Shown here: in pieces, positions 3,228 to 28,572 of the stretch | Layout: each line of letters begins with the position of its first letter | Numbering within the stretch: the stretch's first letter is position 1 | Origin: a virus | IMG/VR virus record: IMGVR_UViG_3300046092_000205 | Location: 12,496 to 76,495 of that record | Length of the DNA: 64,000 bases | Direction: 5' to 3' (one strand) | The notes under the pieces: generated by a model | What the model saw: the letters and a program-made list of their open reading frames with translations, nothing else | The model's database searches: none | What the model was told of the DNA's origin: nothing | Position numbers and translations under genes: made by a program

Positions 3228-3229
3228 TT

Positions 3230-7539: not shown

Positions 7540-7788
7540 ATGTCTAATCAATCATTCCAAATTCCAGAGCAGTTTCTAGTGAAACTCTACGAACTAACGG
7601 GTTCCGCCGATAAAAATAAAGGATTTATACTATTCTTAATAGATAACGATGGAAACCCGCGTCCTATTTTAAGTAAAATGGACATGTCAACAAATATGTG
7701 CCTAAGAAAATGCGCTGAGATATACTTGCGCGAACTTGATGATCATGATGCTATTGGCTCAAGTGAACGAGATGATCATGAAGAATAA
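7540..7788 (+). CDS. hypothetical protein
   Basis: ORF between nuclease and helicase. Confidence 0.7.
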   Translation: MSNQSFQIPEQFLVKLYELTGSADKNKGFILFLIDNDGNPRPILSKMDMSTNMCLRKCAEIYLRELDDHDAIGSSERDDHEE

Positions 7789-7791
7789 TCC

Positions 7792-11692: not shown

Positions 11693-11693
11693 A

Positions 11694-12434
11694 ATGATTC
11701 CACTCTTCAAGTCTACTTACTCCCGCAAGAGCATACTCACTCTTGATAAACCATCACCACCAAACTCTGGCCCAGATTCAATTCTTTCCATTGCCAAAGA
11801 CTACAGCTTGGATCAAATAGTTTTAGTGGAGGATGAGTTCACTGGCTTTAAAACTGCACTTGACAGATGTAAAGAATTGGGTATTAAATTGATTTTTGGC
11901 ATCCGTTTCAATATCTGCAATGATAGGATGGCGGAGGATAAAAAGTCATCAAATCATAAATTAATCGTTTTCGCTAAAAATGACAATGGCGCAAAGCTTT
12001 TGATGAAACTCTATTCTTTAGCGTTTTCTGAGTCAGAAGGTTTTTTAGACTGTATGACTTTAAAAGATAAATGGTCGCCAGACTTAGCCCTTGCAGTTCC
12101 ATTTTATGATTCATTTATGCATCGTAATTCTTTTTACTTCCAGACTTGTATTCCAGATTTGGGGTTCGCAGCGCCCACATTATTCTTGGAGAATAATGGT
12201 TTACCTTTTGATGAAAAACTTCGATCTAAAGTATTTAAATTAGCCGAAGAAAATAATTGGCTCACCAAGGAAGCGAAAACCATTTACTACCGCAATAAAA
12301 AAGACTACGAATCGTATGTCACGTATCGTATCATAACTGGTCGAATTGGCGGTAAGAATCAAACCTTAGATAAACCCGAATTGGAGGATATGTCTAGTAA
12401 TGAATTCAGTTGGGAAAGCTTTGTGGAAAAATAA
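11694..12434 (+). CDS. stand-alone PHP domain of DNA polymerase III alpha (DnaE piece 1)
   Basis: PLFKSTYS, GIKLIFG, LIVFAKNDNG..LL..L.S resemble the DnaE N-terminus; metal-binding His residues absent. Confidence 0.75.
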   Translation: MIPLFKSTYSRKSILTLDKPSPPNSGPDSILSIAKDYSLDQIVLVEDEFTGFKTALDRCKELGIKLIFGIRFNICNDRMAEDKKSSNHKLIVFAKNDNGAKLLMKLYSLAFSESEGFLDCMTLKDKWSPDLALAVPFYDSFMHRNSFYFQTCIPDLGFAAPTLFLENNGLPFDEKLRSKVFKLAEENNWLTKEAKTIYYRNKKDYESYVTYRIITGRIGGKNQTLDKPELEDMSSNEFSWESFVEK

Positions 12435-12435
12435 T

Positions 12436-12774
12436 ATGAACCGACAAAAATGGCTAAAATCTTTAAAACGCGGCGATAAAGTTTGGATTGTTCCTTTTCA
12501 ATTTTATTGCGTGAGCCGATTAACTTGGAAGCAAACATTTGGTGGGTGGTTTGATTTAAAAGGTTCGAATGGAGAAGATTGTCTTTTAGACTATGGTGGT
12601 CTTTTGCAGTTTCCCGCCTCAAATATCTTTCCAACAAAGAGAGAGGCGCAAATTTTTGCCGCACCTTTAAAAATTAAATTCATTAAGAAAAGAATGAATT
12701 CTCTGAACAAAGAATCACAAAAGCTCTATAAAGAATGGAGTAAACTTGAAAAAATTTTAGAAAAACATGACTGA
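12436..12774 (+). CDS. hypothetical protein
   Basis: ATG follows previous stop; LKRGDKVWIV, IFPTKREA. Confidence 0.65.
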   Translation: MNRQKWLKSLKRGDKVWIVPFQFYCVSRLTWKQTFGGWFDLKGSNGEDCLLDYGGLLQFPASNIFPTKREAQIFAAPLKIKFIKKRMNSLNKESQKLYKEWSKLEKILEKHD

Positions 12775-13402
12775 TCAACTATTAAGATTTAATTACGGGC
12801 AGAAATTCATTACATTTGATTTCGAAACAGCCAATCTTGCATTGGGAACTGGTCTTCCATGGCAGCTTGGCTATATAACTCATCAAGGTAAAAAACAAAC
12901 TGGCGAATTTGAGCGAAAAATATTTTGGCCAGATTATCAAATAGCTGATAATATTGCAATGCTAAATCATTTTGATCAGCATACCTACGAAAGTGAAGCT
13001 CGCGACCCACTGGAGGTTTTAGAAGAATTTGAAGCTTATCTTTACAATCCAGAGTATATTGTAGTTTCAATGAATGGATTGGGTTTTGATTGCTTTATCC
13101 ATAATAATTGGAGGAAGGCTCTTGGTAAAAAAACAGACTATTCATGGATGAATAGACACTTGGATATTTTACCTTTGTATAGAGCGGTTCACGGTGGAGC
13201 TAAAGTCGCTGATAATGACGATCTTTTATGCTGGCAATATAGACATCTACACAATAGGGATCGAAAGGTTAAAGCTTCACTATCGGCGCAGTTAAAGTAT
13301 TTTAGCATTCCATTTGATGAAGCTAATAAGCACGATGCGGTTTACGATGTAAAACTGACCTTTGAAGTCTTTCAGAAGATAATCTGGCAATTAGAAATCT
13401 AA
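12767..13402 (+). CDS. DnaQ-like DEDDh 3'-5' exonuclease
   Basis: Exo I FDFET, Exo II NGLGFD, Exo III HDAVYD. Confidence 0.9.
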   Translation: MTDQLLRFNYGQKFITFDFETANLALGTGLPWQLGYITHQGKKQTGEFERKIFWPDYQIADNIAMLNHFDQHTYESEARDPLEVLEEFEAYLYNPEYIVVSMNGLGFDCFIHNNWRKALGKKTDYSWMNRHLDILPLYRAVHGGAKVADNDDLLCWQYRHLHNRDRKVKASLSAQLKYFSIPFDEANKHDAVYDVKLTFEVFQKIIWQLEI

Positions 13403-13405
13403 TAC

Positions 13406-14038
13406 ATGAACATTATTCAAGTAGATAAAAAAACAGCCGATCACTGGATAACTCAAAAACATTATTCTCGTCGCGCATCTATTTTCTGGGCAGCATTCGG
13501 ATTGGAAATTAATGGTAAACTTGAAGGCGTTGTGGTTTATGGTCAACCATCTCCACCTATTCAAAAGCACGCATTTAAAGATCGTGATTTTCGTTTGTAT
13601 GAACTTTCGCGTTTAGTAATCCAAACAAAAGAAAAGAACGCGGCAAGTTTCTTGATTGGTAATTCGCTCAAGCTGCTAGAGAAACCATGTGCTGTCGTAT
13701 CTTATGCGGATAGCGAATGGAATCATTGCGGATTCGTTTATCAAGCTACAAATTGGCTGTATACTGGAGCAACAAAGTCTCACGATCATTCTTATATGGT
13801 AAACGGAGAAAGACTTCACCCAATGACCATTAGGGACAGATTTGGGGTTACTAATTTAAAGCAATGGGCAAAAGAAAATAAAATACAAACCATTAAACCT
13901 GCCGAAAAACATCGCTATTTTTATATCTGCGGAAACAAGCGAGAAAAAAAATCTATACTTGACAGACTGAACTATTCGGTGTTAAGTAGTTATCCAAAAA
14001 TCAATCCATCTCGATACAACGACGGCGACACTATTTAA
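13406..14038 (+). CDS. Mom-like (GNAT fold) DNA adenine modification protein
   Basis: HYS, GVVVYG, YELSRL, VSYAD...H.G.VYQATNWLYTG, KHRYFY. Confidence 0.8.
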   Translation: MNIIQVDKKTADHWITQKHYSRRASIFWAAFGLEINGKLEGVVVYGQPSPPIQKHAFKDRDFRLYELSRLVIQTKEKNAASFLIGNSLKLLEKPCAVVSYADSEWNHCGFVYQATNWLYTGATKSHDHSYMVNGERLHPMTIRDRFGVTNLKQWAKENKIQTIKPAEKHRYFYICGNKREKKSILDRLNYSVLSSYPKINPSRYNDGDTI

Positions 14039-14039
14039 T

Positions 14040-15809
14040 ATGTTTGAAGAATTCCAATCACTAAATAAACCATTACTCGCGGGAGTTCGGCTTCCAAAAA
14101 TTTCTATTGAACCACGCTTCTATGAGCAATTAGAAGTTTCGCCAAAGGTTTCCAATTATGAATTTTTACGCCGCCTTTGCTGGAGGGGTATTAAAAAATT
14201 GGGAATCGACAAGAAATCAAATGCCAAAGAATATTACGAGCAAGTCAAAAAAGAATTGACCACCTTTGAAGAGCTTTCTTTCACAGATTATATTCTTCTC
14301 AATTGGGAGATCCTCAACTTTTGCCATGAAAAAAATATCCCAACAAATGCTGGTCGAGGTTCTGCTGGCTCATCATTAGTTTTGGCTCTTATCGGAGTTA
14401 CAAAAATTGATCCCTTTGAATACAAGCTCTTCTTTGAGAGGTTCGTTTCCAAAAGTCGAGCCAAGAAAATTATTGACGATGGAATAACCTATCTTGATGG
14501 ATCACTAGTTCCAGACGTTGACAATGATATTGATTACAGTCGTCGTCATGAAGTAATGTCTTTCATCGAGGAGAAGCATAGAGGACGCACATGCAAAATC
14601 CTTACATTGAATACTCTTAGTGGAAAACTCTGCATTAAAGAGGCTCTCAAAATTGTTGATGGAGTTAATGAGGATATTGCGAATGCTGTTTCAAATTCTA
14701 TTCCAAAAAAGTTTGGAAAGGTTTTGGATTTTGAAGATGCAATTAAAGAAAGCCCAGCTTTTGCTCAATACATCAAGCAGTATAGTCGCTCTTACGAAGT
14801 GGCTCTTAAGCTGGAAGGATTGATTAAAAACACTGGCGTTCATCCATCTGGAATCGCTATCTGCCATGATGATCTTGATGATACAATGCCGTATGGAAGA
14901 ACAAAAGATGGCGACCTTATTTCTGGATTTGAAATGAATGACGTTGCATCAGTAGCAATTAAGTTTGATATTCTTGGGCTAAGAACACTAACAGTTTTAG
15001 ACCAAGTTTGCAAAATGACAGGACTGGTTCTTGAAGATATTGATAAAGACGATAAAGAAACATATCAATTCTTGCAGAACTTAATTGCTCCTCAAGGCTT
15101 ATTCCAGATTGAAACCGATACTGGATTTAGAGTTTGTCAAAAAGTGCGGCCTAAAAACCTACATGATTTATCTGCTGTGTTAGCAATTGCGCGCCCTGGG
15201 GCTTTGGCTTTTGCGGATCAATATGCAAAGTTTTCTAATACTGGTGAGGTAACAAGTATTCACCCATTCTTTGATGACATTCTAGGTTGGACAGGATCAA
15301 TTCCTCTATACCAAGAACAGTTGATTGCAATGGCCCGTAAAATTGGGTTCACCGCTGATGAAGGCGAGCAACTGAGGCGCATAGTTGGCAAAAAGAAAGT
15401 CGATCAGATGAAAGAGTGGCGCGAGAAGATCCAATTAAAAATTCAAGAAAATAGTCTTGATACAAAAATTGGAGAAATCTTATGGAAAGTTGCTGAGGAC
15501 TCTGCGAATTATAGCTTTAATGCTTGCCTTTCTCCAGAAACCGTTGTTCAAAAAGAATCTGGATTTGACTGTCTTTCCAATATCAAAAAAGGGGACAAAG
15601 TGTTGGCTTATGACGTAAAAAATAAGAAAGACCATTTTGTAGAAGTTGTTGATATTCATCCTAATTTTGTAGAGCTATTTAAGATTGAATTTGAAGATGG
15701 AAGGATAATCGAATGTTCCATGGATCATAAATTTCTCTGCGAGGACGGAAAAATGAGGGCGATGAAAAATATATTGAGAGGTAATCATAGTATTGTGTGT
15801 AAAGATTAG
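14040..15809 (+). CDS. dnaE: DnaE catalytic N-extein (aa 1-495) fused to N-half of split intein (aa 496-589)
   Basis: GRGSAGSSLV, FERFVS, PDVDND, GVHPSG, KFDILGL, GLFQ, RPG, YQEQ, LRR; then SFNA|CLSPET. Confidence 0.95.
   Translation: MFEEFQSLNKPLLAGVRLPKISIEPRFYEQLEVSPKVSNYEFLRRLCWRGIKKLGIDKKSNAKEYYEQVKKELTTFEELSFTDYILLNWEILNFCHEKNIPTNAGRGSAGSSLVLALIGVTKIDPFEYKLFFERFVSKSRAKKIIDDGITYLDGSLVPDVDNDIDYSRRHEVMSFIEEKHRGRTCKILTLNTLSGKLCIKEALKIVDGVNEDIANAVSNSIPKKFGKVLDFEDAIKESPAFAQYIKQYSRSYEVALKLEGLIKNTGVHPSGIAICHDDLDDTMPYGRTKDGDLISGFEMNDVASVAIKFDILGLRTLTVLDQVCKMTGLVLEDIDKDDKETYQFLQNLIAPQGLFQIETDTGFRVCQKVRPKNLHDLSAVLAIARPGALAFADQYAKFSNTGEVTSIHPFFDDILGWTGSIPLYQEQLIAMARKIGFTADEGEQLRRIVGKKKVDQMKEWREKIQLKIQENSLDTKIGEILWKVAEDSANYSFNACLSPETVVQKESGFDCLSNIKKGDKVLAYDVKNKKDHFVEVVDIHPNFVELFKIEFEDGRIIECSMDHKFLCEDGKMRAMKNILRGNHSIVCKD
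15525..15806 (+). mobile_element. split intein N-half (94 aa)
   Basis: Block A CLSPETVV, IKKGDKVLAYD, block B IECSMDHKF, then stop. Confidence 0.9.
15797..15802 (+). promoter_or_regulatory. GTGTAA putative late promoter for endonuclease
   Basis: 8 nt before ATG 15811. Confidence 0.6.
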
Positions 15810-15810
15810 T

Positions 15811-16770
15811 ATGGCCATCATTGAATATAGCGATAACAAAAAAATCATACCTCAATCAGCATTTGAAACTTGCTTAATTTCTGGGAAAACAAAAACTCAA
15901 ATTTCGAAAGAGTTTAGGGGAAGGGAAAATGGAGTCTATTACTTAGATAAATTTGCAAATAATTTAAAAGGCTACGATATTTCTGTTAAGGAGTATGTTT
16001 GCCGATTCTTAAAAATTGAATGGCCAAAATGTCCAGTATCAAATGAAGACGTAGGATACCTCATCCGAGGTAACGGCCTTATTTTTAGCTTATTTAAGAG
16101 AGGAAGGGTAAACAAAGAACATTGCGAGGCATTTAGAAAAGGATGCGAAAAACTCTCCAAAGATAGAGTGGGGGAAAATAACCCAATGTTCGGCAGGGAT
16201 TCGTGGAATAAAGGTCTTTCTATCGAAGACGAAAGAGTAAGAAAAATGGCGGAAAAAACTCGTGGGAGAAAAGCCTCGCAAGAAACGAGGGAAAAGCAGA
16301 AAGCAGTTAGAAAAAATCATCCACTCAAAGCTAGGCACACTCAAAAACATAGTGAAGAAAGCAAGAATAAATGCAGAGAAGCCACTGCGAAAGGTTGGGC
16401 AAATGGGCGATTTAATAAAAAAACTTCTATCGAACAGAAAATGGAGGACTTTTTAAAAACGCTCCCCCTAAAAGAAGATTTCATTTTTCAGTTTCAACAC
16501 GGTTATTTTACTCTTGACTTTGCGTTTCCGAATGCTAAAGTGGGTATCGAGTGTCAAGGTGGATTTTTTCACACCGACCCTAGATTATACCCAAATGGTC
16601 CAAAAACAAAAATACAAGAAAGAAATCTCGTTAGAGACATTGAGAAAAGGAAGTATTTTTCCTCAGAAAACTGGCAAACAATAGAGTGCTGGGAAATTGA
16701 AATAAATAATAATAAATTTAAAGAAGAAATTATATGCGCTTTGCAAAAATTAAATCTGCTACAAGAATAG
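15811..16770 (+). CDS. free-standing homing endonuclease (NUMOD3-like repeats + Vsr-like PD-(D/E)xK domain) between split intein halves
   Basis: GENNPMFGR..WNKG, HSEESKNK, TSIEQKM, LDFAF...IECQGGFFH...RD..K...WE. Confidence 0.85.
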   Translation: MAIIEYSDNKKIIPQSAFETCLISGKTKTQISKEFRGRENGVYYLDKFANNLKGYDISVKEYVCRFLKIEWPKCPVSNEDVGYLIRGNGLIFSLFKRGRVNKEHCEAFRKGCEKLSKDRVGENNPMFGRDSWNKGLSIEDERVRKMAEKTRGRKASQETREKQKAVRKNHPLKARHTQKHSEESKNKCREATAKGWANGRFNKKTSIEQKMEDFLKTLPLKEDFIFQFQHGYFTLDFAFPNAKVGIECQGGFFHTDPRLYPNGPKTKIQERNLVRDIEKRKYFSSENWQTIECWEIEINNNKFKEEIICALQKLNLLQE

Positions 16771-16847
16771 GAAAGAGAAGTACGTTGGATTTAGAAGTCG
16801 ATCATAAAGATCATAACTTTTATGCGGAAGGACTAGTCACGAGCAAT
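16734..16847 (+). mobile_element. split intein C-half (38 aa)
   Basis: Block F LDLEV...HNFYA, block G GLVTSN, +1 Ser. Confidence 0.9.
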
Positions 16848-17915
16848 TCACATTCTTATTGCTACGGGGTGACTAGTTTTTATACAGCCTACTGCAAAGT
16901 TCATTATCCACAGGAATTTTTCCTTGCATTATTGAAGATGGCTCAAAATGAACCCGATCCGCTATCCGAAATTTTCAAAATCTCCCAAGAGCTTGCTCTA
17001 TTTGGAATCAAACTCTTACCTCCTGACCTTTCTAAGTCTAAAGAAGAGTTTTCCATTGAGGGTAAAGACCTCCGCTATGGATTGAATTCGATCAAAGGTG
17101 TTTCAGAAAAGAGCATTCAAAACCTATTAGACTTTCGCGGTCAAGAATTCTCAAATAAATATCAAGTATTCCAATCGGCCAAAGATTGTGGATTGAATAT
17201 TGGTATTGTTTGCACATTGATTCAGGCTGGATGCCTAGATTCTTTTGGGGAGAATCGTTGCAAAATGGTTCTTGAAGCTCAAATGTTTAGCAAGCTCACG
17301 GAAAAAGAAAAACTCTCTGTTTTAGAACTTGGAGAGCATCATAAGTATGATATTTTTGCCGCCTTAAAAGATGGCGCTGATGGCAAAATACTTAATGATA
17401 AAAATAAAAGCACATTCACCGAAAAGCGAATCCAAAAACTTCGCGAGGAGCATGGCAAATATAAACAAATCTATGATCAAAATATCAAACACCAAAAATT
17501 CTGTAATTGGTATTTCGAGCGCGAAATGTTGGGGTATTCATATTCGTATACATTAAGAGAAGTGTTTGAAGAGCCGAAGAGCGCATTTACTTCAATTCTA
17601 GAATTTAATTCTCTCGACGACAACACGTTAGTTCGTATTGTTGGAGTCGTGACCGAAGTGAAAAAGACAACATCTAAAAAAGGTAATAAATACATGATGC
17701 TAGACATTTCTGATGAGAGCGGTAAGCTATCTGGAATGTTTGGAGATAACGGCAAAGATAATAAATGGTCGCGTCATCTTGAAGAAAAGCTACCAGTTCC
17801 ACAAGAGGATTCTATAGTTACAGTGGTAGGAAAGAAATTCGGAGATTTGCTTATGGTAGATAAGTTCTCAATTATTGATGAGAAAATATATACTCGCCTA
17901 TCGCAAATAAAATAA
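16734..17915 (+). CDS. dnaE: split intein C-half (aa 1-38) fused to DnaE C-extein (HhH and OB-fold)
   Basis: DLEVDHKDHNFYAEGLVTSN|SHSYCY; YPQEF, LLPPD, YGLNSIKGV, LIQAGCLDSF, EREMLG, TSKKGNKY..LDISDESG. Confidence 0.95.
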   Translation: MRFAKIKSATRIGKRSTLDLEVDHKDHNFYAEGLVTSNSHSYCYGVTSFYTAYCKVHYPQEFFLALLKMAQNEPDPLSEIFKISQELALFGIKLLPPDLSKSKEEFSIEGKDLRYGLNSIKGVSEKSIQNLLDFRGQEFSNKYQVFQSAKDCGLNIGIVCTLIQAGCLDSFGENRCKMVLEAQMFSKLTEKEKLSVLELGEHHKYDIFAALKDGADGKILNDKNKSTFTEKRIQKLREEHGKYKQIYDQNIKHQKFCNWYFEREMLGYSYSYTLREVFEEPKSAFTSILEFNSLDDNTLVRIVGVVTEVKKTTSKKGNKYMMLDISDESGKLSGMFGDNGKDNKWSRHLEEKLPVPQEDSIVTVVGKKFGDLLMVDKFSIIDEKIYTRLSQIK

Positions 17916-17916
17916 C

Positions 17917-17944
17917 TTGACAAATAACATATACCGATTAAAGT
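17917..17944 (+). promoter_or_regulatory. sigma70-type promoter TTGACA-N16-TAAAGT
   Basis: Same hexamers and spacing as 5430; 9 nt before ATG 17954. Confidence 0.65.
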
Positions 17945-17953
17945 CACACAGTA

Positions 17954-20281
17954 ATGCAACAAACACCTAATTTAATCCGCCATATTGAAGAAGCCTCAAA
18001 AACTTCGCAAAAAAATAATCGCCCAAACAATGTTGTCGATTTATTTTCGCAACTTTTAAATGAGAGCAAATTTCAAAATTTGCTAACATCTTTTAAAATA
18101 AATCCCGAAGCTGTTAAAGATAGCTTATCTGAAAAATTACCAGATGTTTTCCCAGAGATTTTTGAAGGATGTGAGGAGGAATATAATACTGTCTTAAAAG
18201 AGGCTGAAGATTCGGCAAAAGAATTGGGTTATGGATATTTTGATACCGAACATCTTTTTCATGAGCTTCTAAATTCATCGCCCACCATTAAATCTTTTTT
18301 CGCCATCCACGATATTTCCTTGGATGAAATTTTAGAAAAAACAGCAGACATGGTTTCTTTAAAAGATGAAGGCTTGAAAGAATTATCAAGAGAATTATCT
18401 GAGCCAGATTTCCCAACAATTGATAAGTTTTGCAAGAACCTATCAATTGATTATGGAACTGAATCTCAAAAAATCTATGGACGTTCCGAAGAAATTTCCA
18501 ATATTTTAGATGTTCTTTGCCGACATAAAAAAGGAAATGCTATTCTAATTGGAGATCCAGGAGTTGGTAGAAAAAGCATTATTCGCGGCGTCATCGAAAA
18601 AATTAATAGCGGCAAAAGCTCAGAGGTCTTGCGTGAAAAAACATTTTATGAGCTTGACATTACAGCAATTATTGCTGGAGCTTCAATGTTTGGCTCTATC
18701 GAAGGTCGTTTTAAAAACCTGACAAAGGAACTGGAGGATCACGGCAGCGCTGTTCTTGTTATTCCAGATTTCCAAGTAGTTTCTGGAAGTGGATTTAAAG
18801 ATGGTCCAAGTGAAATTTCAAATTTCTTGAAGAGTATTTTAGCGCGGCCAAATATTTCTTGTCTCGCGACAATTACCCAAGTTGATTACAAGAAGCATAT
18901 TGAGAAGGATCAATCTATGACTAATCTTTTTGAGGTTATCAAAGTTAAAGAGCCAACTAAAGAAGAAACGCGCCAAATCATTGTGAATTCAATCTACGAA
19001 TTGGAAGATTGTCACTATGTTGAATTTCCAATGGAAACAGTTGATATGGTTTTGGATCTTTGCGAAAAGTATCTTCCCTATAGACGTTTCCCAGAAAAAG
19101 CATTTGATACACTTGACTTTCTTGGAGCTAGAACTAAGAATGAGCACTTTACTCATCCGCCAAAACTTCATGAAGAATGGCAATCTATCATGGATAAAAT
19201 TGGCCCAAATATCCAACAAGACTCTCCAGAGTTTATCAAATTGAATCGACGCATGGAAAAATGGGCGAAAAAACTGAATAAGTGGATGGAATACACCGAT
19301 AGAAATATTCCATCAATTTCACCACAAAAGGCTATTTCAACATTTGCTGAAAAGTATAAAATTACCGAAAATCAACTCAAGCAACTTCAAACATCAACAA
19401 TTGATGGGCTTGCCGAAAAATTAAAAAGCGCAATCTTTGGCCAAGATCATGCTATTGATAAAGTATGCGATGTTCTGCTGTGCTCGAAAGTTGGTTTGAG
19501 AGATAAAAATAAACCACTAGGTAAATTCATGTTTGTTGGATCAACTTCGACTGGCAAGACCGAATTAAGTAAGCAGCTAGCAGTAAATTACTTTGGCGAT
19601 GACAAGGCTTTATTAAAGTTGGATATGTCTGAATTTTCAGAAAAGTTTTCTAGCTCATCTCTAATTGGAACAACTGCTGGGTACGTGGGATATGAAAACG
19701 GTGGGCGTCTAACTGAATTCGTAAAGCATAACCCATCATGCGTTGTTCTGTTTGACGAAATTGAGAAGGCTGATAGGAGCGTTCACAATCTTCTACTTCA
19801 AATCATGGACGATGGCTATCTTACTGATGGTCAAGGATTCAGGGTAGATTTTACAAACACAATCGTTATTCTCACAACAAATTCTGGTAGTGAACCACCA
19901 AAATCAATGGGCTTTAATATTGAGCCGTCAAATGATCATCATGAAAAAGCGGCCAAAAAAGATTTTGCCCCTGAATTTAGAGCGCGAGTCGATGAAATTG
20001 TTGTATTCAAAGATATGGATGACAAAATGATGACGAGTATCCTTAGCAAATTCATTAACCAGTCACTGGAAAAACTAAAAGAATCTGGAGTTTCAGTTAC
20101 TATTGAAGAATCTGTAAAAAATCTTTTGCTCAAAGAAGTTAAGTCCCAAGGCTCGCACTCGCGAGAAATCCAAACAACTGTGAGACGAAAATTAGATGTG
20201 CCACTTGCAAAGTTTATTATTAATAATAGACCCAAAACAATTTTTGTAAAATCTTGCGAAAACAAGATAGAAATATTGTAA
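17954..20281 (+). CDS. ClpA/ClpC-like AAA+ unfoldase (degenerate first ATPase domain)
   Basis: Clp-N TEHL, GRSEEI, LIGDPGVGRKS, RRFPEKAFD, IFGQDHAI, GSTSTGKT, DMSEF, GYVGYE, LFDEIEKA, SMGF. Confidence 0.9.
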   Translation: MQQTPNLIRHIEEASKTSQKNNRPNNVVDLFSQLLNESKFQNLLTSFKINPEAVKDSLSEKLPDVFPEIFEGCEEEYNTVLKEAEDSAKELGYGYFDTEHLFHELLNSSPTIKSFFAIHDISLDEILEKTADMVSLKDEGLKELSRELSEPDFPTIDKFCKNLSIDYGTESQKIYGRSEEISNILDVLCRHKKGNAILIGDPGVGRKSIIRGVIEKINSGKSSEVLREKTFYELDITAIIAGASMFGSIEGRFKNLTKELEDHGSAVLVIPDFQVVSGSGFKDGPSEISNFLKSILARPNISCLATITQVDYKKHIEKDQSMTNLFEVIKVKEPTKEETRQIIVNSIYELEDCHYVEFPMETVDMVLDLCEKYLPYRRFPEKAFDTLDFLGARTKNEHFTHPPKLHEEWQSIMDKIGPNIQQDSPEFIKLNRRMEKWAKKLNKWMEYTDRNIPSISPQKAISTFAEKYKITENQLKQLQTSTIDGLAEKLKSAIFGQDHAIDKVCDVLLCSKVGLRDKNKPLGKFMFVGSTSTGKTELSKQLAVNYFGDDKALLKLDMSEFSEKFSSSSLIGTTAGYVGYENGGRLTEFVKHNPSCVVLFDEIEKADRSVHNLLLQIMDDGYLTDGQGFRVDFTNTIVILTTNSGSEPPKSMGFNIEPSNDHHEKAAKKDFAPEFRARVDEIVVFKDMDDKMMTSILSKFINQSLEKLKESGVSVTIEESVKNLLLKEVKSQGSHSREIQTTVRRKLDVPLAKFIINNRPKTIFVKSCENKIEIL

Positions 20282-20315
20282 TCTGTCGTTAATATACTGA
20301 CAACAGTCAATACAT

Positions 20316-20498
20316 ATGAACAACATCGAAACAACCCTAAAGTCTACCCGTGGCCGCTTTTTTACACTCTCCACTAAGCAAGGAGAGAAGTTTAATGCTC
20401 AAGCTCGCGGAATGACAAAGTGCTACATTACAGTCTTTGATCGCAATAAGAATCGCTTGCGTAAGCTAGCCAAAACAAGTGTGATTGGCGTAAACTAA
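20316..20498 (+). CDS. small basic protein, possibly SH3/Sm-like beta-barrel
   Basis: 60 aa, GRFFTLSTKQGEKFNAQ, Lys/Arg rich. Confidence 0.65.
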   Translation: MNNIETTLKSTRGRFFTLSTKQGEKFNAQARGMTKCYITVFDRNKNRLRKLAKTSVIGVN

Positions 20499-20499
20499 A

Positions 20500-20672
20500 T
20501 GTCGCGCGCACTTGATGGAAAGCTACCATCGAGAGCAACGCACAAACTTAAGGTACCGCACCAATTTGGGTCGCTCAGTTCAACCAAGACCCAGAACGGA
20601 AAATGTGATAAGTTGAACTATCACGGCCTTGAGCATCAAATCCCAAATTACTGAAAAGTAGTTTGGGATTTT
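20500..20672 (+). ncRNA. candidate structured ncRNA (hairpin + 3-way junction with kissing loops + terminator)
   Basis: Stems 20511-18/20526-33, 20547-53/20627-33, 20567-72/20588-93, 20605-10/20619-24; loops GTTCAAC and GTTGAAC are complementary. Confidence 0.65.
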
Positions 20673-20673
20673 T
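20639..20673 (+). terminator. intrinsic terminator
   Basis: AATCCCAAATTACT-GAAA-AGTAGTTTGGGATT followed by T run. Confidence 0.8.
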
Positions 20674-20687
20674 CGTTTATTATAAAT

Positions 20688-21725
20688 ATGCGTCTAGAAA
20701 ATATTCTCCGAGAAAAGATTTACGCTTTTTCAATGCACTCAGAAACTTCTGAAGCAGAAATCTTTCTCCTAAAAGAAATTGCCGCTAAAAATAAATTGGG
20801 TGAATATATTAGCTCATTAGTATTGGATAATAATGATAACTATGACTCTTATCGCTTGGATACGTCAGATGGTCATTTTTGCGTAAAATTATCTCTTGAT
20901 CCTCAAGATTCCTCTATCAAAAAAGACTTTGAGACGCTTTCTCAATTATTGGATAAACATTTACCTTACGCTATTGCTCTGGGAGATTTAAAAGATTTTC
21001 ACGCTCAATATTCCGTCTCTTCATTTGTTTATGGACAAAGTTGCGCTGAGTTAGGCAAATCTCACATCACATCTCTAAAGGATAAATTTTTAGAATTAAT
21101 TAACGGTTTGGCTGAGAAAAAAATAAAAGCTCAATCATTTAAAGAATTCGTAGAGGAGAAATACCTATTTTCAGATATTACAAAAACGCCTCAATTCAAA
21201 GAAGTTGATTTTTCTAAGGATATGGAAGTTTTAGAAATCTGCACATCTGAACTTATTGCTACAAAAAAACTAATAAAAGAAGCCTATAATTCCTGCATGG
21301 AAGGTCAACAATTATGCCATGGAAACATTACTCCATCAAGACTATTAATTCGTGGCGACGAATTTTCTTTAATTAATTTTGATGATTCTTATATTGGGAA
21401 TCCATTAATTGATCTTTGTTCTCTAAAATATGAGTTTTTTATTCAAGATGGTATGGAGGCGGCAATTATTAATGATTTTCGCGCAAAAAATAATTTTGAG
21501 ATGGCCGACTATAGAAAATGTGCGAATTTAGTTAAGATTATGAAGTTTCATGATTTAATTAACGACTTTATTAAGTATGTTTATATTTATAGGGGAGTAA
21601 AGCATAGAAAAATTCTTGAACTAACTGAAAAAATGAGTAGATCATTTGGCTTATTCGGTGGGTTGCCACCGTTCGAAAGACACAAAGAAAAAATAGCTGA
21701 GCTATTTACGTCAAGCGTAATTTAA
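20688..21725 (+). CDS. APH/choline-kinase fold protein, probable pseudokinase
   Basis: FCVK; LCHGNITPSRLL in place of HGDxxxxN; LINFDDS in place of IDFD; GNPLIDL. Confidence 0.7.
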   Translation: MRLENILREKIYAFSMHSETSEAEIFLLKEIAAKNKLGEYISSLVLDNNDNYDSYRLDTSDGHFCVKLSLDPQDSSIKKDFETLSQLLDKHLPYAIALGDLKDFHAQYSVSSFVYGQSCAELGKSHITSLKDKFLELINGLAEKKIKAQSFKEFVEEKYLFSDITKTPQFKEVDFSKDMEVLEICTSELIATKKLIKEAYNSCMEGQQLCHGNITPSRLLIRGDEFSLINFDDSYIGNPLIDLCSLKYEFFIQDGMEAAIINDFRAKNNFEMADYRKCANLVKIMKFHDLINDFIKYVYIYRGVKHRKILELTEKMSRSFGLFGGLPPFERHKEKIAELFTSSVI

Positions 21726-21738
21726 GATTTGGAGCACG

Positions 21739-21744
21739 GTGTAA
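21739..21744 (+). promoter_or_regulatory. GTGTAA putative late promoter
   Basis: 11 nt before ATG 21756, first gene of the fibre operon. Confidence 0.65.
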
Positions 21745-21755
21745 AATAATACACA

Positions 21756-22100
21756 ATGAGTGCTTCATATAATTTAACAGGTTCTAGTGCTATAGAGAGA
21801 GGCTCTTGTGCGTCTTTTTCTTTTGATTTAAATGCTTCCTCTGGCGAATATGGAATCTCTGGATATTTAGTTTCTGGATTTATTCGCCGCAAATGGGATA
21901 GAAATTTAGAAACAACTTGGAATTCTCAAATTCTTTCTACTGGATCTGGTATTGTTAATATGACTCTTACCGCCGATCAAACATCCAGATTATCATTAGC
22001 TCCATTAGAGCATGAAGTATTTCTTTATCCCCCATCTTCTGGATGCCCCATAAGAATTCTTGACGGAGAAATAGAAGTAAAAGGCGGTGATATTTTTTAA
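21756..22100 (+). CDS. virion structural protein (BppU N-terminal-like)
   Basis: IERG..F, GIVNMTLTADQTSRL, RILDGEIEV. Confidence 0.65.
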   Translation: MSASYNLTGSSAIERGSCASFSFDLNASSGEYGISGYLVSGFIRRKWDRNLETTWNSQILSTGSGIVNMTLTADQTSRLSLAPLEHEVFLYPPSSGCPIRILDGEIEVKGGDIF

Positions 22101-22103
22101 TTT

Positions 22104-25100
22104 ATGGCTGATTTAAATATTACAATTAATCCTCCGCCAGCAATTTCCGTAGGAATTAGTCCGCCGCAATCCACTTCGATTACTGTTGGAGATGGAATTC
22201 CACCCCATAATATAACTCATTCTCCTGCTGGATCAGATAGTTTGGCCACATGGTACGCTACAGTTAATGATTTAAGTATCGTGAGTGGTTCACTATCAAG
22301 CGGCACTGTATCACTTACTGGCAATCAAAATATTTCGGGCGTAAAAAACTTTTATTCTCGACCAACACTTAATGACATCGGTCTTCAAACAACTGGCGAA
22401 TATGAAGAATTTAATTCGTGGAAGGAATATAAAGGCACTCTTTATCCTAATCCAAATAACGACTTAAATAGAAACTATAGTGTCTTACTAGACGCCGAAG
22501 ATAATTCTGGCCCATCTGGAGCAACGATTTGGTACAATATTCCCCAATGGACAGGAGCGAAACCAGTTGGAACGGGTATTTCTTCGTTTTATAACACTGG
22601 TTTTTGGGCGCGGGATTATGACTGGTCATGCGTATCGTTTAAGGGCGCTAGAGCGCGTGCTGATGGGTTTCCATCAATATGTATAACGTTAATCTCCAAG
22701 AGACACGCTATTGGCGTTCAACATTGGCAACTTGGGCGGGGGGACAAGGTAGCATTTGTTTCTAATGTGGAAACTGGTTACACTTGGGAGGCGACAATCG
22801 CGGATGCTTACAATTTGAATGGGGATTTGTTATTATACTCATTCACTGAAGATGCTCCAAGCCAAATTCGTCCAGCCTCAATTATTCGTTCTCCAGTAGC
22901 GTCATCATGGCAAGCAAACTCGTTATTAGGGACAAGAGGGTTCATGGTTAAGGATTCGACAGTATTGAATGAGACTTTTGGCGGTATTAAAACTGGAGTA
23001 GGCGGCTTTATTGGGGGAGCTTTAGATATAACATATTCGCTTAGTGCTGGCGGTGCTGGCGCGAGATATACTGGCTTTCATGTGGGCGGAGACTCGTCAA
23101 GCCCTGTATTTATACCACTTAGAGATGGGAGACTTGTGTATGTTAGCTCTGCGACTTTTGTTGGCAATGGGACTTTTGTGGGTGATCCAAATATTATATC
23201 TGGAATCAATGTTTTTACAACTGGATATTCTATAGATTATTGGGATGTTCCAAAAGTTCCAGTATTTTCCGTCGATCCAACAAATGTAATCCGTAACCTC
23301 GGAACGGAGACGAATAAATGGTATGAAATAAACTGCGGTTATGTTAAAGCATTAAATCTTGATGGATTGTTGTCTGAGAGTAATATTCAACTATTTAACG
23401 AGGTTTTATATGGGGAAGATGTTGTTATCGCAGATCCAATAACTTCTAAAGGATTAACTTACAATTCAGAAGGTTGGGATTATCCAAACCTAATTAATTT
23501 TAGCGGCACTTTCCCAAATAATTATTTTTCTAGATTTGTTATCCCAAATTCTGGCGCATCCATTAACTTCACTTCATCAGGACCAACATTATTGATGCCA
23601 AATGGTAGTGGGTTTTCTGGCGCTGGCTATGTTATTGAGGCTAGAGGGGTAGATTCTAACAAAATACTCATTCAGCCAATATCAGTCCCATTTGGAACTT
23701 ATGCAACTGGCAACGTTATCCGACCCTCTCAAACAGGTAATTTTGTTGATAAATCTTCTGCTGTATTACTCACTGGTAATCAAAATATTTCGGGCGTAAA
23801 AAACTTTGCTCATATTACAGCCTTAAGTCTTCAAGGAGATTTAAGGGAGTTGGATATTTCTACCTATAATGAGTATTTTTATGGGGAAACAGTTAACGCA
23901 ACCCAAGAAAATCTTCAGGGATTAACTATTAATACACAAGAAGTTGCCGAATCAAATACAATTAATTTCAGTGGCAACTACCGAGATACCTTTTGGGCTA
24001 GATTTGTTATCCCAAATTCTGGCGCATCCATTAATTTTTCTTCATCAGGGCCAACATTACTGATGCCCAATGGTAGTGGCTTTTCTGGTGTTGGCTATGT
24101 TATTGAGGCTAGAGCGGTGGGCTATAACAAAATACTTATTCAGCCAATAGCTTTCCCATCTGGAACTCATGTAACTGGCAACGTTATCCGACCCTCTGAA
24201 ACTGGGCAATTTACTGGGGTGTTCTACCCGTATTCAGGTAATCCAGCGGGTTATGTTCAAGGGGCAGTTGTTAGACCATCTAATACTGGAAATTTTGTTG
24301 ATAAATCTTCCGCTGTACTGCTTACTGGGAATCAAAATATTTCGGGCACTAAAAACTTTACTTATGTTACAGCATTAAGTCTTCAAGGAGACTTAAGAGA
24401 GTGGGATACTTTAATCTATAATGAGTATATATATGGGGAAACGATTAATATAACCCAAAACGATCTTAATGGAATAACTGTTAATGCAGCGCTGCCTGAC
24501 ATAACCAACATAATTAATTTCAGCGGAGCTTACTCTGATACCTTTTGGGCTAGATTCGTTATCCCAAATTCTGGCTCATCTATAAACTTTTCTTCATCAG
24601 GGCCAACATTATTAATGCCCCATGGTAGCGGTTTTTCTGGCGTTGGCTATGTTATTGAGGCTAGATCAGTAGATTTTAACAAAATACTCATTCAGCCAAT
24701 CTCATTTCCATCTGGAACTTACAGTAGTACTACTGGTTATCTTACGGGCTATGTCAATAAAACAGAAACAGGAAGTTTCATAACAACCGCTCAAACAGGT
24801 CAATTTGTTTCGACTGGATCTACAGGTCAATTTGTTACAGGAAGCGTTGTAAGGCCAAGCCAAACTGGAGCATTTCTTACTACTGGCGCGGCTGATAATC
24901 GTTACGCTTTGCAGTCAGCAACTGGTAATTTTGTTACCACAGGTCAAACGGGTAATTTTCTAACAAGTGGAACACCCATTGAAACTATTCAGTTATACGC
25001 TAAAAATGACGAATCTTTTACCTTGTACAAGGGTCAAGCTGTTTATATTGGCGGAGCCAATGGAACAAATGCATTAATCAAAAGAGCGTCAAATACTGGA

Positions 25101-25670
25101 GAACTAACCTCTTCAAAAACTATTGGTCTTTTAGCTCAGAACTTAAATGCTGATGATTTTGGCTATATTATATCAGAAGGAATTCTGGAGGGAATTAACA
25201 CAAGTGCGGCTACCGCTGGTGATCCAATGTGGCTTGGCACAACTGGAGATCTTATTTTTGGCACTGGCAATAAACCTTATGGCAATAATCACCTTGTTTA
25301 TTTAGGTGTTGTTCTGCGCTCTCAATCGAGTAACGGTAAAGTTTATATCAAGCCTCAAAACGGTTTTGAGATTGAGGAATTGCATCGTGTCTACGCTAAA
25401 AATGCAATCAGTAAAGATACTTTAATGTATGATTCGACGAGCGGATCTTGGTTTGCGCGTCAAATTTCAACTGGAGACGTATCTGGTATTTCGTCTTACG
25501 CCACAAATAGTTCTGTTGTATCTCTTACTGGAGATCAAAATATCTCTGGAGTTAAAAATTTTTATTCTCGCCCAACAGTCAATGGAACAGGAGTTTTACT
25601 CAGCGGAGAATCAATTACTACTCAACCCAATGATGCCAATTTGATTATTGGTTTATCTCTCTTTCTTTAA
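22104..25670 (+). CDS. large fibre/spike protein with trypsin-like domain and triplicated module
   Basis: LTG(N/D)QNISG(V/T)KNF fibre motif x4, three internal repeats, TG/SG-rich, LIS.RH...HW and GDSSSP. Confidence 0.8.
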   Translation: MADLNITINPPPAISVGISPPQSTSITVGDGIPPHNITHSPAGSDSLATWYATVNDLSIVSGSLSSGTVSLTGNQNISGVKNFYSRPTLNDIGLQTTGEYEEFNSWKEYKGTLYPNPNNDLNRNYSVLLDAEDNSGPSGATIWYNIPQWTGAKPVGTGISSFYNTGFWARDYDWSCVSFKGARARADGFPSICITLISKRHAIGVQHWQLGRGDKVAFVSNVETGYTWEATIADAYNLNGDLLLYSFTEDAPSQIRPASIIRSPVASSWQANSLLGTRGFMVKDSTVLNETFGGIKTGVGGFIGGALDITYSLSAGGAGARYTGFHVGGDSSSPVFIPLRDGRLVYVSSATFVGNGTFVGDPNIISGINVFTTGYSIDYWDVPKVPVFSVDPTNVIRNLGTETNKWYEINCGYVKALNLDGLLSESNIQLFNEVLYGEDVVIADPITSKGLTYNSEGWDYPNLINFSGTFPNNYFSRFVIPNSGASINFTSSGPTLLMPNGSGFSGAGYVIEARGVDSNKILIQPISVPFGTYATGNVIRPSQTGNFVDKSSAVLLTGNQNISGVKNFAHITALSLQGDLRELDISTYNEYFYGETVNATQENLQGLTINTQEVAESNTINFSGNYRDTFWARFVIPNSGASINFSSSGPTLLMPNGSGFSGVGYVIEARAVGYNKILIQPIAFPSGTHVTGNVIRPSETGQFTGVFYPYSGNPAGYVQGAVVRPSNTGNFVDKSSAVLLTGNQNISGTKNFTYVTALSLQGDLREWDTLIYNEYIYGETINITQNDLNGITVNAALPDITNIINFSGAYSDTFWARFVIPNSGSSINFSSSGPTLLMPHGSGFSGVGYVIEARSVDFNKILIQPISFPSGTYSSTTGYLTGYVNKTETGSFITTAQTGQFVSTGSTGQFVTGSVVRPSQTGAFLTTGAADNRYALQSATGNFVTTGQTGNFLTSGTPIETIQLYAKNDESFTLYKGQAVYIGGANGTNALIKRASNTGELTSSKTIGLLAQNLNADDFGYIISEGILEGINTSAATAGDPMWLGTTGDLIFGTGNKPYGNNHLVYLGVVLRSQSSNGKVYIKPQNGFEIEELHRVYAKNAISKDTLMYDSTSGSWFARQISTGDVSGISSYATNSSVVSLTGDQNISGVKNFYSRPTVNGTGVLLSGESITTQPNDANLIIGLSLFL
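23341..24720 (+). repeat. three diverged direct repeats (~470-550 nt) in fibre gene
   Basis: RFVIPNSG(A/S)SINF(T/S)SSGPTLLMP.GSGFSG.GYVIEAR.V..NKILIQPI at ~23530, ~23998 and ~24551 with near-identical DNA. Confidence 0.95.
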
Positions 25671-25673
25671 ATT

Positions 25674-26039
25674 ATGCCAACCTATACTAAAATACCACTA
25701 TCTCAAAACGCTATTGGAGCGGGAATTATCGTAACATCTTCAGGAGTTCCAGGCACTTTCTTGCACGCTACACCAAGCAATAGTGTGGACCTTGATGAAA
25801 TTTGGTTGTATGCTAACAATACAGGAATGTCGGATGCATTTCTTACTCTGTATTGGGGAACTACTGGAGCTTCTAACGTTCTTGGCCCTGTTACTGTTCA
25901 GGCTTATGCTGGACCAACTCTTATATCTCCTGGGCTAGTGCTTGAGGGTAGTGGCTCAACAGCTAGTGTTGTTTATGGCACAAGCTCAGTTCCTAGTGGA
26001 ATCAGTGTGTATGGTTACGTTAATAGAATCACAGCTTAA
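25674..26039 (+). CDS. small virion/fibre-associated protein
   Basis: DEIWLYANN...LISPGLVL...GYVNRI, beta-rich. Confidence 0.7.
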   Translation: MPTYTKIPLSQNAIGAGIIVTSSGVPGTFLHATPSNSVDLDEIWLYANNTGMSDAFLTLYWGTTGASNVLGPVTVQAYAGPTLISPGLVLEGSGSTASVVYGTSSVPSGISVYGYVNRITA

Positions 26040-26041
26040 TT

Positions 26042-28567
26042 ATGAGTGCTCGTTACGGTCAAAAAGTTGGTCCATTTTCAACTAAAAAGGTTGCTTCTTC
26101 TTTTGTTTCTAACAATAGAAATGATCTACCATATACAGGAACTGCTGCACCATTTAGACCCGCACCACCAACTCCTTATGTAAGACCAGCAGATTATCTA
26201 GCAATGCCAACAATTGCTAACACTGAACAAAAAGTAGCATTGTTGGTTTTTATTAGTAATGATAATTCTAATTTTTTATCATTGATTGTCGCGGGAAATT
26301 ATACAGTTGATTGGGGTGACGGTGTGGTTGAAAATATAAATACTGGTGTTCAAGCAAACCATATTTACGATTTTGCAACTTATGATCCAACCAATTCAAC
26401 ACTAACGACAGATGGATTCAAACAAGCTATTGTTATTATTACACCCCAAGCTGGTAGCAACTTAACTGGTTTAAATCTTGTGGTAAGGCATCCATCCACC
26501 ACAGGATTTAATGCTTATGCCCAACCTATTATAGAAGCATATGTTTCTTGTCCCAACGCAACAAGTTTGGCGTTTTCGTTTTCAGCAACTTCTGTTTTTT
26601 GTAGAAAAACAAGTTATATAAATTTAATTAATACTGGATCAATAACATTATTCAGTAATTTATTTAACCTGATGTCGGGTTTACAAAAAGTCGATATAGG
26701 CAAAACCGCTGCAATTACTAATACACAAGCCATGTTTCAGTATTGTTATTCGTTAAAAGAAATTACGGTTTCAAATGATACAAATTTTTCCAGTATTACA
26801 AATACATCATCTATGTTTAGTACTTGCTACTCTTTAATAAATGTTCCTTTGTTTAATACTGGAAGTGTAGGAAACATGAATTTCATGTTTCAGGATTGTA
26901 GGTCATTGATTTCAGTACCCTTGTTTGATACTAGAAGTGCAACAACAATGACAAACATGTTTCGTGAGTGCAGGTCATTGATTTCAGTACCCTTGTTTAA
27001 TACCGTGAATGTATTAACCATATCAGACATGTTTGTGAACTGTTTTGGTTTAACAGCAGTCCCTTTGTTTGATACTAGAAGCGTAACAACAATGGCAAAC
27101 ATGTTCTCTAGCTGTACAAGTTTATCATCAGTTCCTTTATTAAATACCATAAATGTAACGACCATGAATGGTATGTTTTATGAGTGCAGGTCATTGACTA
27201 CAGTGCCATTGTTTGATACTACAAAAGTAACAATCATGAGCAATATGTTTATAAACTGTTCTGCTTTAAGAACAGTACCTTTATTTAATACTGCAAATGT
27301 TACAGCTATGGACTCTATGTTTAACGGGTGCATTAGTTTAACAACTGTTCCTTTATTTAACACAATCAAAGTTACAACTATGGCTAGTATGTTTTTAAGT
27401 TGTGTCAGTTTAGTAAATGTACCCTTATTCAATACACCAGCTTTAACAAATATTAGTGGTATATTTGCTAACTGCGCTATGTTAAAAACTATACCTTTAT
27501 TAAATACAGAGAATGTGACAAACACAAGTAGTATGGTTAATGGTTGTGTATCTTTAACGTCTATACCTTTGTTTAATACAACAAAGGTAACAAATATGAA
27601 TTCTATGTTTCAGAATTGTTATTCTTTAAAGTCTGTACCTTTATTTGATACAGCGAATGTACTAAGTATGCGCAATATGTTTACTGCTTGTTATTCTTTA
27701 ATGTCTGTACCTTTATTTAATACGGTAAAAGTTACAGATATGTATCAGATGTTTGCTAGTTGTGTATCTTTAACATTTTTACCTTCGCTCAACACTTCTC
27801 TTGTAACACTTATGGAAAGTATGGTTAACAATTGCCCATCTTTAACGGCTATTCCCAGCTTTAATGTTACCAATGTATCTATTTTTAATGCCTTCACTGG
27901 CAATGCTTGTTACTCTGTTGCATCTTTATTAATGACTAATGTAAAATATACATTAGATATTAATAACTGTAAATTGTCAAAACAAGCCTTAGAAACTTTT
28001 TTTACAAACTTAGGAACGGCAACTGCTGGTGCAACTAGAACATTAACATTAACAAACAACTGGGGAGCGCCTACGCCAGTATCGTTGAATGGTACTACAA
28101 CCGAAGGGTCTGTGACGATAGCGATGGCAAGCACAACTGGATTATCTACTGGTATGCAAGTTACTGGAACCAACACCCCTTTAACAACAGGTGAAACTGT
28201 AACATTTACAGATACAGGTGATTTGGTAAGTACTGTTGTGGCGCATGGCTTGAGTAATGGAGATGAAGTGTCTTTTTCAGCTATCACTACAACAACAGGT
28301 ATTGTAATTAATACAATTTATTTTGTGGTTAATGCTGATACTAATACTTTTCAGGTTGCAGCCTCCGTTGGTGGTGCAGCATTGCCATTAACAACTAACG
28401 GATCTGGAACAGTTAAATACAATTCAACAATTGTGAGTATTAATCCAAATGTCAGTGTTACAATGTCTAGACCAATGGTGGGTAATAGTGGAACTCCAAT
28501 ATCACTCTCTTTTCGTTTGCTTCAAACATACAGAGCAGTACTCAAAGGTTTCGCAATTACAGGATAA
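26042..28567 (+). CDS. BspA/DUF285-type leucine-rich-repeat adhesin-like virion protein
   Basis: VDWGDG (PKD-like), tandem 22-aa repeats VPLFNT..VT.M..MF..C.SL, C-terminal HGLSNGDEV...YFVVNAD.NTFQVA. Confidence 0.85.
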   Translation: MSARYGQKVGPFSTKKVASSFVSNNRNDLPYTGTAAPFRPAPPTPYVRPADYLAMPTIANTEQKVALLVFISNDNSNFLSLIVAGNYTVDWGDGVVENINTGVQANHIYDFATYDPTNSTLTTDGFKQAIVIITPQAGSNLTGLNLVVRHPSTTGFNAYAQPIIEAYVSCPNATSLAFSFSATSVFCRKTSYINLINTGSITLFSNLFNLMSGLQKVDIGKTAAITNTQAMFQYCYSLKEITVSNDTNFSSITNTSSMFSTCYSLINVPLFNTGSVGNMNFMFQDCRSLISVPLFDTRSATTMTNMFRECRSLISVPLFNTVNVLTISDMFVNCFGLTAVPLFDTRSVTTMANMFSSCTSLSSVPLLNTINVTTMNGMFYECRSLTTVPLFDTTKVTIMSNMFINCSALRTVPLFNTANVTAMDSMFNGCISLTTVPLFNTIKVTTMASMFLSCVSLVNVPLFNTPALTNISGIFANCAMLKTIPLLNTENVTNTSSMVNGCVSLTSIPLFNTTKVTNMNSMFQNCYSLKSVPLFDTANVLSMRNMFTACYSLMSVPLFNTVKVTDMYQMFASCVSLTFLPSLNTSLVTLMESMVNNCPSLTAIPSFNVTNVSIFNAFTGNACYSVASLLMTNVKYTLDINNCKLSKQALETFFTNLGTATAGATRTLTLTNNWGAPTPVSLNGTTTEGSVTIAMASTTGLSTGMQVTGTNTPLTTGETVTFTDTGDLVSTVVAHGLSNGDEVSFSAITTTTGIVINTIYFVVNADTNTFQVAASVGGAALPLTTNGSGTVKYNSTIVSINPNVSVTMSRPMVGNSGTPISLSFRLLQTYRAVLKGFAITG
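26780..27880 (+). repeat. tandem 66-nt (22-aa) LRR array
   Basis: Recurrent GT(A/T)CC(T/C)TT(A/G)TTT(A/G)ATAC every 66 nt. Confidence 0.9.
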
Positions 28568-28572
28568 TTTAT

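Follow-up and report, generated by a model that had tools for sequence, protein, structure and literature searches.

A three-way-junction RNA with a covarying loop-loop helix downstream of a predicted Sm-like protein gene in an uncultured freshwater phage

Introduction

The purine riboswitch (RF00167) is a three-way junction closed by helix P1, in which the loops of P2 and P3 touch through two G-C pairs plus non-canonical contacts and the junction strands are conserved. Natural hammerheads are also three-way junctions with a loop-loop tertiary contact. Among phage-encoded RNAs, the phi29 pRNA combines a three-way-junction core with two mutually complementary loops, which pair between molecules over about 4 bp, and it docks on the portal of small phi29-like phages. 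CpxQ and SroC are bacterial small RNAs that derive from 3' UTRs and share the terminator of the mRNA; they act via short single-stranded seeds and are usually simple hairpins. Clients of Hfq carry A-rich stretches and a terminator with a U-tail. Multimers made of RNA only and held by kissing loops have been reported for bacterial and phage-associated RNAs, including GOLLD and ROOL, as outlined in a preprint (bioRxiv 10.1101/2024.12.08.627333).

In this study, we analysed a structured RNA in 64,000 nucleotides of viral DNA (IMG/VR record IMGVR_UViG_3300046092_000205, positions 12,496 to 76,495), hereafter the window. Like the purine riboswitch, the phage RNA is predicted to be a P1-closed three-way junction with a P2/P3 loop-loop contact and conserved junction strands. 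Its junction sequences differ, however, and it gave no score with the RF00167 model at E<=10; its loop-loop helix has seven Watson-Crick or wobble pairs, its arms are unequal (L2 of 15 nt, L3 of 8 nt), and it lies in a 3' UTR after a stop codon with no usable antiterminator. With the phi29 pRNA it shares a phage origin, the junction core and two mutually complementary loops, but here the phage genome is about 140-160 kb and the packaging genes are far away from the 3' UTR that contains the RNA. Like CpxQ and SroC, it follows a stop codon and precedes the intrinsic terminator of the same mRNA, which has a U-tail, whereas its fold is a compact pseudoknotted junction. The architecture is thus a known one, with purine-riboswitch and hammerhead-like topology, and the element itself belongs to no described family.

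Results

Source phage and layout of the locus

The source contig is a viral IMG/VR record of 76.5 kb with an estimated completeness of 55%. The DNA runs containing the stretch were freshwater metagenomes, one unspecified metagenome and one industrial-waste metagenome; all sequencing runs listed for it were DNA, with no RNA run among them. The phage encodes a UvsX-like recombinase, a DnaB-like helicase, a primase, a split DNA polymerase and a large terminase. The window gave no blastn match against GenBank phages, and the identity of its Clp-like protein was below 34% in the 15 best phage records and below 60% across all 193. The phage is a member of an uncultured freshwater group without a close GenBank or cultured relative, with genomes of roughly 140-160 kb. 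The DNA polymerase (PHROG 405) was divided between an ORF at 14040-15809 and another at 16734-17915, which are separated by an ORF of 325 aa.

Two related IMG/VR contigs, L002 and L003, were recruited via the 60-aa protein encoded at the locus. The features of the locus are as follows:

17954-20281, + strand: ClpA/ClpB-type AAA+ ATPase gene, 775 aa (Pfam AAA_2, 1e-48; PHROG 4871, 5e-175)
20287-20296, + strand: probable promoter core CGTTAATATA, with a -10-like TAATAT at 20290-95; invariant in the window, L002 and L003
20316-20498, + strand: gene for a basic protein of 60 aa (13 K/R versus 3 D/E)
20500-20544, + strand: upstream hairpin in the MFE fold, core stem CTTGATGG/CCATCGAG (20511-18/20526-33), loop GAAAGCTA
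20547-20633, + strand: three-way-junction RNA of about 90 nt, from the fold and the L003 homologue
20547-54/20626-33, + strand: P1, closing stem CTTAAGG(T)/(G)CCTTGAG
20555-64, + strand: J1/2, unpaired junction strand
20565-72/20588-95, + strand: P2, with L2 at 20573-87
20578-84, + strand: L2 kissing segment GTTCAAC, one side of the 7-bp loop-loop helix
20596-604, + strand: J2/3, unpaired junction strand
20605-10/20619-24, + strand: P3, with L3 at 20611-18
20612-18, + strand: L3 kissing segment GTTGAAC, exact reverse complement of GTTCAAC
20638-20676, + strand: intrinsic terminator, 15-bp stem (20638-71), GAAA-type loop and T-run
20688-21725, + strand: kinase-fold (APH/CotS-like) gene, 345 aa (Pfam APH, 1.3e-4, below cut-off; CotS, 7e-3)

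Fold of the junction and comparison with a homologue

After the stop codon of the 60-aa ORF at 20498, the RNA element (20500-20634) is followed directly by the terminator (20638-71). The stems, hairpins, loops, ORF and terminator described in the initial annotation were all present where it had placed them, including the P2 and P3 arm stems TGGGTC/GACCCA and GTGATA/TATCAC. The gap had been called extensively base-paired, and folding agreed: the + strand of 20495-20680 had an MFE of -63.6 kcal/mol and a z score of -6.56, with 0 of 200 shuffles folding as well, and the - strand of the same region had a z score of -3.2. The complementarity claimed for the two loops was exact; we calculated that a perfect 7-nt complement between two loops would arise by chance about once in 1000, and the helix that they would form was backed by covariation, as described below. 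A 51-aa ORF (20499-20654) overlaps the RNA and has no counterpart in L003, so the RNA region was taken as not coding.

We then compared the junction with L003:3306-3402, a homologue that scored 109.5 bits with covariance model R1. The two junctions were 86% identical amid a spacer that was otherwise unalignable. They differed by 21 substitutions, 18 of them in paired columns; 3 of 31 pairs were broken, and four more changed to or from wobble. Five pairs had changed on both sides with compensation, of which P2 and the loop-loop helix each contributed two and P3 one. None of the 21 substitutions fell in the unpaired columns of J1/2 and J2/3, so that the single-stranded sequences UACCGCACCAA and ACGGAAAAU were invariant between the window and L003. 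The L2 segment of L003 is GTCTAAC, in which a U-A to C-G and a C-G to U-A change were compensated by the partner loop, GTTAGGC in L003. All seven kissing pairs were kept in both sequences, two being doubly changed and one a wobble. In the alignment of the two sequences, 95% of cells were paired, compared with 23-45% when the 3' partners were slid.

The metagenome contigs over the stretch were near-identical and added three informative substitutions. One variant carried G20631A, which turns a U.G pair of P1 into U-A, and in the upstream hairpin it carried G20531A (U.G to U-A) and C20536T (G-C to G.U), both with the pair kept. In a simulation of 200,000 runs with 21 random substitutions, five or more double-compensated pairs arose with P = 4e-4, and jointly with three or fewer broken pairs about once per 10,000 trials (P ~1e-4); as there are two independent sequences and one near-identical variant, these covariation statistics are thin. 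Both sequences contain G.U pairs, which the opposite strand would turn into A.C, so the structure is specific to the + strand. From the covariation, the simulation and the invariant junction strands we conclude that the junction, kissing helix included, is an RNA structure under selection in two independent sequences. The initial annotation had proposed a structured phage RNA and had named covariation, above all of the loop-loop pairs, as its test; the fold, the five double compensatory pairs (two of them in the kissing helix) and the invariant junction all speak for that proposal.

The surroundings of the junction were less alike. The upstream hairpin as such was not recognisable in L003, where the only sequence in common was GAAAGCTAC. 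In L003 the junction was flanked by extra hairpins at 3190-3311 and 3398-3472, absent from the window, and the element lay about 75 nt from a different terminator, with other hairpins in between. In L002 the Sm-like gene, the terminator and the downstream gene were all kept and the RNA element was absent; relative to L002, L003 has an insertion of about 225 nt, beginning right after the common GTTCTGAAA. The gap from the small gene to the next gene was 189 nt in the window and 328 nt in L003, whereas elsewhere it mostly measured 35-110 nt. That L002 has these flanks but no element, and that gaps in other loci are shorter, points to the RNA as an insertion, and its absence from L002 indicates that it is dispensable for the cassette.

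Searches for known families and further copies

We searched the whole window against Rfam 15 at gathering thresholds and found no match. With permissive filters at E<=10, the window and L003 gave nothing over the junction, and the weak matches concerned the terminator hairpin only. ARAGORN found no tRNA or tmRNA in the window, nor in 20450-20720 at a relaxed threshold of 80%. The purine riboswitch model RF00167 did not match the window at gathering thresholds, nor the window or L003 at E<=10. As for the hammerhead, the junction strands (UACCGCACCAAU, GAACGGAAAAU and G) contained no CUGAUGA, GAAA and UH in any permutation, and there was no Rfam match at E<=10. No Rfam 15 family scored on the junction, and we take the library to include the phi29 pRNA model. 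The Rfam and ARAGORN searches and the inspection of the junction thus uphold the earlier statement that the RNA matches no tRNA, tmRNA, hammerhead or purine riboswitch, and the Infernal/Rfam scan that could have removed its novelty returned no family.

Exact-pattern scans with the invariant junction strands across IMG/VR, JGI metagenomes and GTDB genomes returned L003 as the only true copy; the other pattern matches all failed the covariance model, and the match in L017 lay inside a coding region. By model R1, neither the 78 loci of the protein family nor two complete genomes of related phages (160 and 140 kb) contained a copy. By these sequence searches, the RNA element is present in two phage lineages among the collections covered and belongs to no described family; the contigs encoding the closest protein homologues may carry additional copies.

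A second R1 match in the window (7664-7747, E = 0.08) was rejected as a chance match. It lies within an 82-codon ORF (7541-7789), read from the sequence in the apparent gap between a 136-aa gene and the DnaB-like helicase gene; this ORF falls under the 120-aa cut-off of the ORF listing.

The 60-aa protein

The 60-aa protein had 11 close homologues with identities of 76-98% and 60 cluster representatives at E<=1e-3, indicating that the gene is real and conserved. It had no match in Pfam, PHROGs, NCBIfam or PADLOC, and a protein atlas search matched unnamed viral clusters only. The WYL Pfam model matched neither the protein nor its family, and the Hfq model PF17209 matched 1 of 52 family members (E = 0.035). 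A six-frame search of the whole record with the Hfq model at E<=10 found nothing, while control genomes were matched. A sequence-profile search of the PDB gave NHL/'Pizza' blade-like and very weak LSm matches only.

An AF2 model built from a 52-sequence alignment had a pLDDT of 92.4, with a helix at residues 2-10 and five strands; an earlier model from 12 close sequences (pLDDT 52) was discarded. The predicted model shows the N-terminal helix and five strongly bent strands by which the Sm fold is recognised and which Hfq, Sm and WYL domains have in common. The top Foldseek matches were all Hfq (TM 0.73-0.81, E ~6e-3). With VIA, the WYL domains of PafBC, BrxR and CapW scored Z 9.5-8.8 (rmsd 1.0-1.4 over 60 residues) and Hfq Z 9.1-8.2 (9.1 to 1kq1), so that Hfq was tied with the WYL domains and a designed SH3 barrel. 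In our reading, a stretch RKxAKxS of the 60-aa protein stands where Hfq has YKHAIST. Unlike Hfq, LSM and WYL proteins, the 60-aa protein has no significant sequence match to those models, and, in a further difference from Hfq, the constant neighbour of its family is a Clp-type ATPase gene and not RNA genes. Judged by the predicted model, the protein is an Sm-like small beta-barrel, a nucleic-acid-binding type of fold, without a sequence-family match.

The gene cassette

The pattern of the protein family matched 182 stretches in IMG/VR, 180 of which were confirmed by tblastn, and synteny was examined in 78 loci (L029-L106) beyond L002 and L003. In 76 of the 78 loci the gene directly before the small gene encoded a Clp-like ATPase, and in 41 of the 78 the kinase-fold gene of 345 aa had a homologue downstream. 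The order of Clp-type ATPase, Sm-like barrel of 60-90 aa and kinase-fold protein of about 350 aa was conserved in many uncultured phages. In the window, the Clp-type gene also matched NCBIfam ClpA (3e-141, below cut-off), and the kinase-like protein had no match in PADLOC.

The probable promoter core CGTTAATATA sits inside an imperfect inverted repeat (20283-20306) to which the initial annotation had drawn attention. Its core was invariant in L002 and L003, whereas the arms of the repeat were not kept in these relatives. CGTTAATATA was not a repeated promoter motif of the window, with 9 one-mismatch matches against 5.5 expected. Of 59 distinct regions upstream of the small gene, 37 contained TTGACA-N16-18-TAnnnT, most often with TAATAT, and in the family examples that we inspected the -35 lay inside the last codons of the Clp gene. 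The window has no good -35, and the promoter is therefore assigned here from the relatives.

Of 63 distinct family loci, at least 32 had an intrinsic terminator after the small gene. The strong terminator reported after the RNA was confirmed, and its hairpin at 20638-71 was the strongest in a 20-kb scan (10000-29500). The Sm-like family thus usually has its own predicted promoter and terminator, and their presence around the small gene across the family suggests that the ancestral unit consisted of promoter, Sm-like gene and terminator.

In another clade (L046:1693-1815, L059, L062, L072, L074 and L087), the 3' UTR opens with an invariant GGTCGGACT plus AAAACGG, followed by a hairpin with compensatory changes and then by an invariant terminator CTAACCCCCTTGAAAAAGGGGGTTAG. 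This different covarying hairpin indicates that the 3' UTR of the Sm-like gene has repeatedly hosted structures, not this RNA in particular.

The kinase-like gene in the window is preceded by TTATTATA (20677-20690), which is also invariant after the terminator in another clade; by its sequence conservation, the downstream gene appears to have an element of its own after the terminator.

Discussion

We give about an even chance to the reading that the element is a structured, constitutively folded RNA domain of the 3' UTR, specific to its lineage, and is either a stable 3'-end domain or a 3'-derived small RNA. A short transcript would start at the predicted promoter before the 60-aa Sm-like gene and end at the terminator (20638-71), which the RNA would share with the mRNA if it is a 3'-UTR-derived small RNA. 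The kissing helix would act as a clamp that holds the three-way junction in shape, and the invariant junction strands would form a putative binding surface for a protein or another RNA. Since the helices vary with compensation and the junction strands do not vary, the functional surface is most likely the junction. The RNA was probably inserted into an older cassette of promoter, Sm-like gene and terminator, which most phages of the protein family carry without it. If the element is transcribed, it would add a new motif to the known structured RNAs, one in which a three-way junction is clamped by a long loop-loop helix with covariation support, a rare feature.

The initial annotation had suggested an RNA-protein module. 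In such a scheme the Sm-like protein, presumably as a ring, would bind the kissing-loop domain of its own mRNA, for autoregulation or as a cis RNP. Because its predicted fold is Sm-like and of the nucleic-acid-binding type, the 60-aa protein could bind RNA; structurally it comes closest to the RNA chaperone Hfq and nucleic-acid-binding WYL domains, it is strongly basic, and it would be encoded on one predicted transcript with the RNA, whose A-rich junction and U-tailed terminator resemble those of Hfq clients. The covarying hairpin that another clade has at the same 3' UTR position also fits this scheme. However, the module is not borne out by distribution, because the RNA is absent from the 78 family loci, the two complete related genomes and the close relative L002; the constant partner of the family is the Clp-like ATPase gene, the Hfq Pfam model gave no match, and Sm-like barrels have non-RNA roles too. 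We regard binding of this kind as doubtful, and the distribution provides no specific link between the RNA and the Sm-like protein. The same element might instead assemble with itself, L2 of one molecule pairing hand in hand with L3 of another to give dimers or rings. The two loops are exactly complementary and covary, and covariation is blind to whether pairing is within or between molecules. Given the arm lengths, a single molecule may not easily accommodate the 7-bp loop-loop helix, and pairing between molecules may be the alternative; by our reasoning, a 7-bp helix between an 8-nt loop and the neighbouring arm may strain a single molecule. The kissing-loop multimers outlined for GOLLD and ROOL (bioRxiv 10.1101/2024.12.08.627333) are a precedent. 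Against self-assembly, the phi29 pRNA model, presumably in the Rfam library, gave no match, the packaging genes are distant from the 3' UTR that holds the RNA, and an intramolecular L2-L3 contact is feasible, as the purine-riboswitch architecture demonstrates. Assembly between molecules therefore seems quite unlikely to us.

If the element were a riboswitch, or otherwise regulated the downstream kinase-like gene in cis, this would account for the order of aptamer-like junction, terminator and start codon, which is that of a transcriptional riboswitch, and for the invariant junction strands, a typical feature of ligand pockets. The window does offer a possible antiterminator, since AATTTGGG at 20564-71 is able to pair with CCCAAATT at 20642-49. 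This candidate fold is 9 kcal/mol worse than the junction fold even with the kissing helix not yet counted, which favours a constitutive fold over a switch, and no equivalent pairing was seen in L003, where about 75 nt and further hairpins separate the element from a different terminator. In addition, L002 regulates the same gene pair without the element, and the downstream gene seems to own TTATTATA. A regulatory RNA in the riboswitch sense, one of the earlier suggestions, thus lacks a visible switching expression platform, and we leave it a slim chance. The suggestion of a ribozyme fared worse: a self-cleaving RNA or RNase processing signal that fixes the 3' end of the mRNA would suit the position at the transcript end, and a junction with a loop-loop contact is also the architecture of natural hammerheads, but the junction strands hold no CUGAUGA/GAAA/UH core in any permutation and no ribozyme family matched at E<=10, making this reading highly improbable. 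It is also very unlikely that the element is a non-functional piece of recently shared spacer with fortuitous pairing. Two lineages only carry it and one close relative is without it, as would be expected of such a piece; against this stand the island of 86% identity in an otherwise unalignable spacer, the 18 of 21 substitutions in paired columns and the 3 of 31 broken pairs, a combination expected by chance at about 1e-4.

Apart from the RNA, the locus belongs to a widespread phage gene family outside Pfam and PHROGs, encoding predicted Sm-like barrels of 60-90 aa almost always after a Clp-type ATPase gene. This raises the question of whether phages use such barrels with unfoldases, with RNA, or with both. 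We consider it unlikely that the junction is either a dedicated RNA partner of the Sm-like ring from the same transcript or an RNA that assembles hand in hand. If it were, it would represent a new viral RNP or RNA assembly, and the cassette of promoter, Sm-like gene, 3' UTR and terminator would be a general platform whose structured RNA differs from clade to clade.

Two further observations concern the terminator region. In many loci (L046-L095), TTATTATA follows the T-run of the terminator shortly before the next start codon, and in one clade the terminator loop TTGAAA lies 16 nt upstream of TATTAT; this spacing, as read from the sequences, suggests that terminator and promoter overlap and that the mRNA has a very short leader or none. 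The terminator hairpin (20638-20673), of which the window holds one copy, was also found in short metagenome contigs with unrelated flanks from three runs, and related genomes appear to reuse it at other sites.
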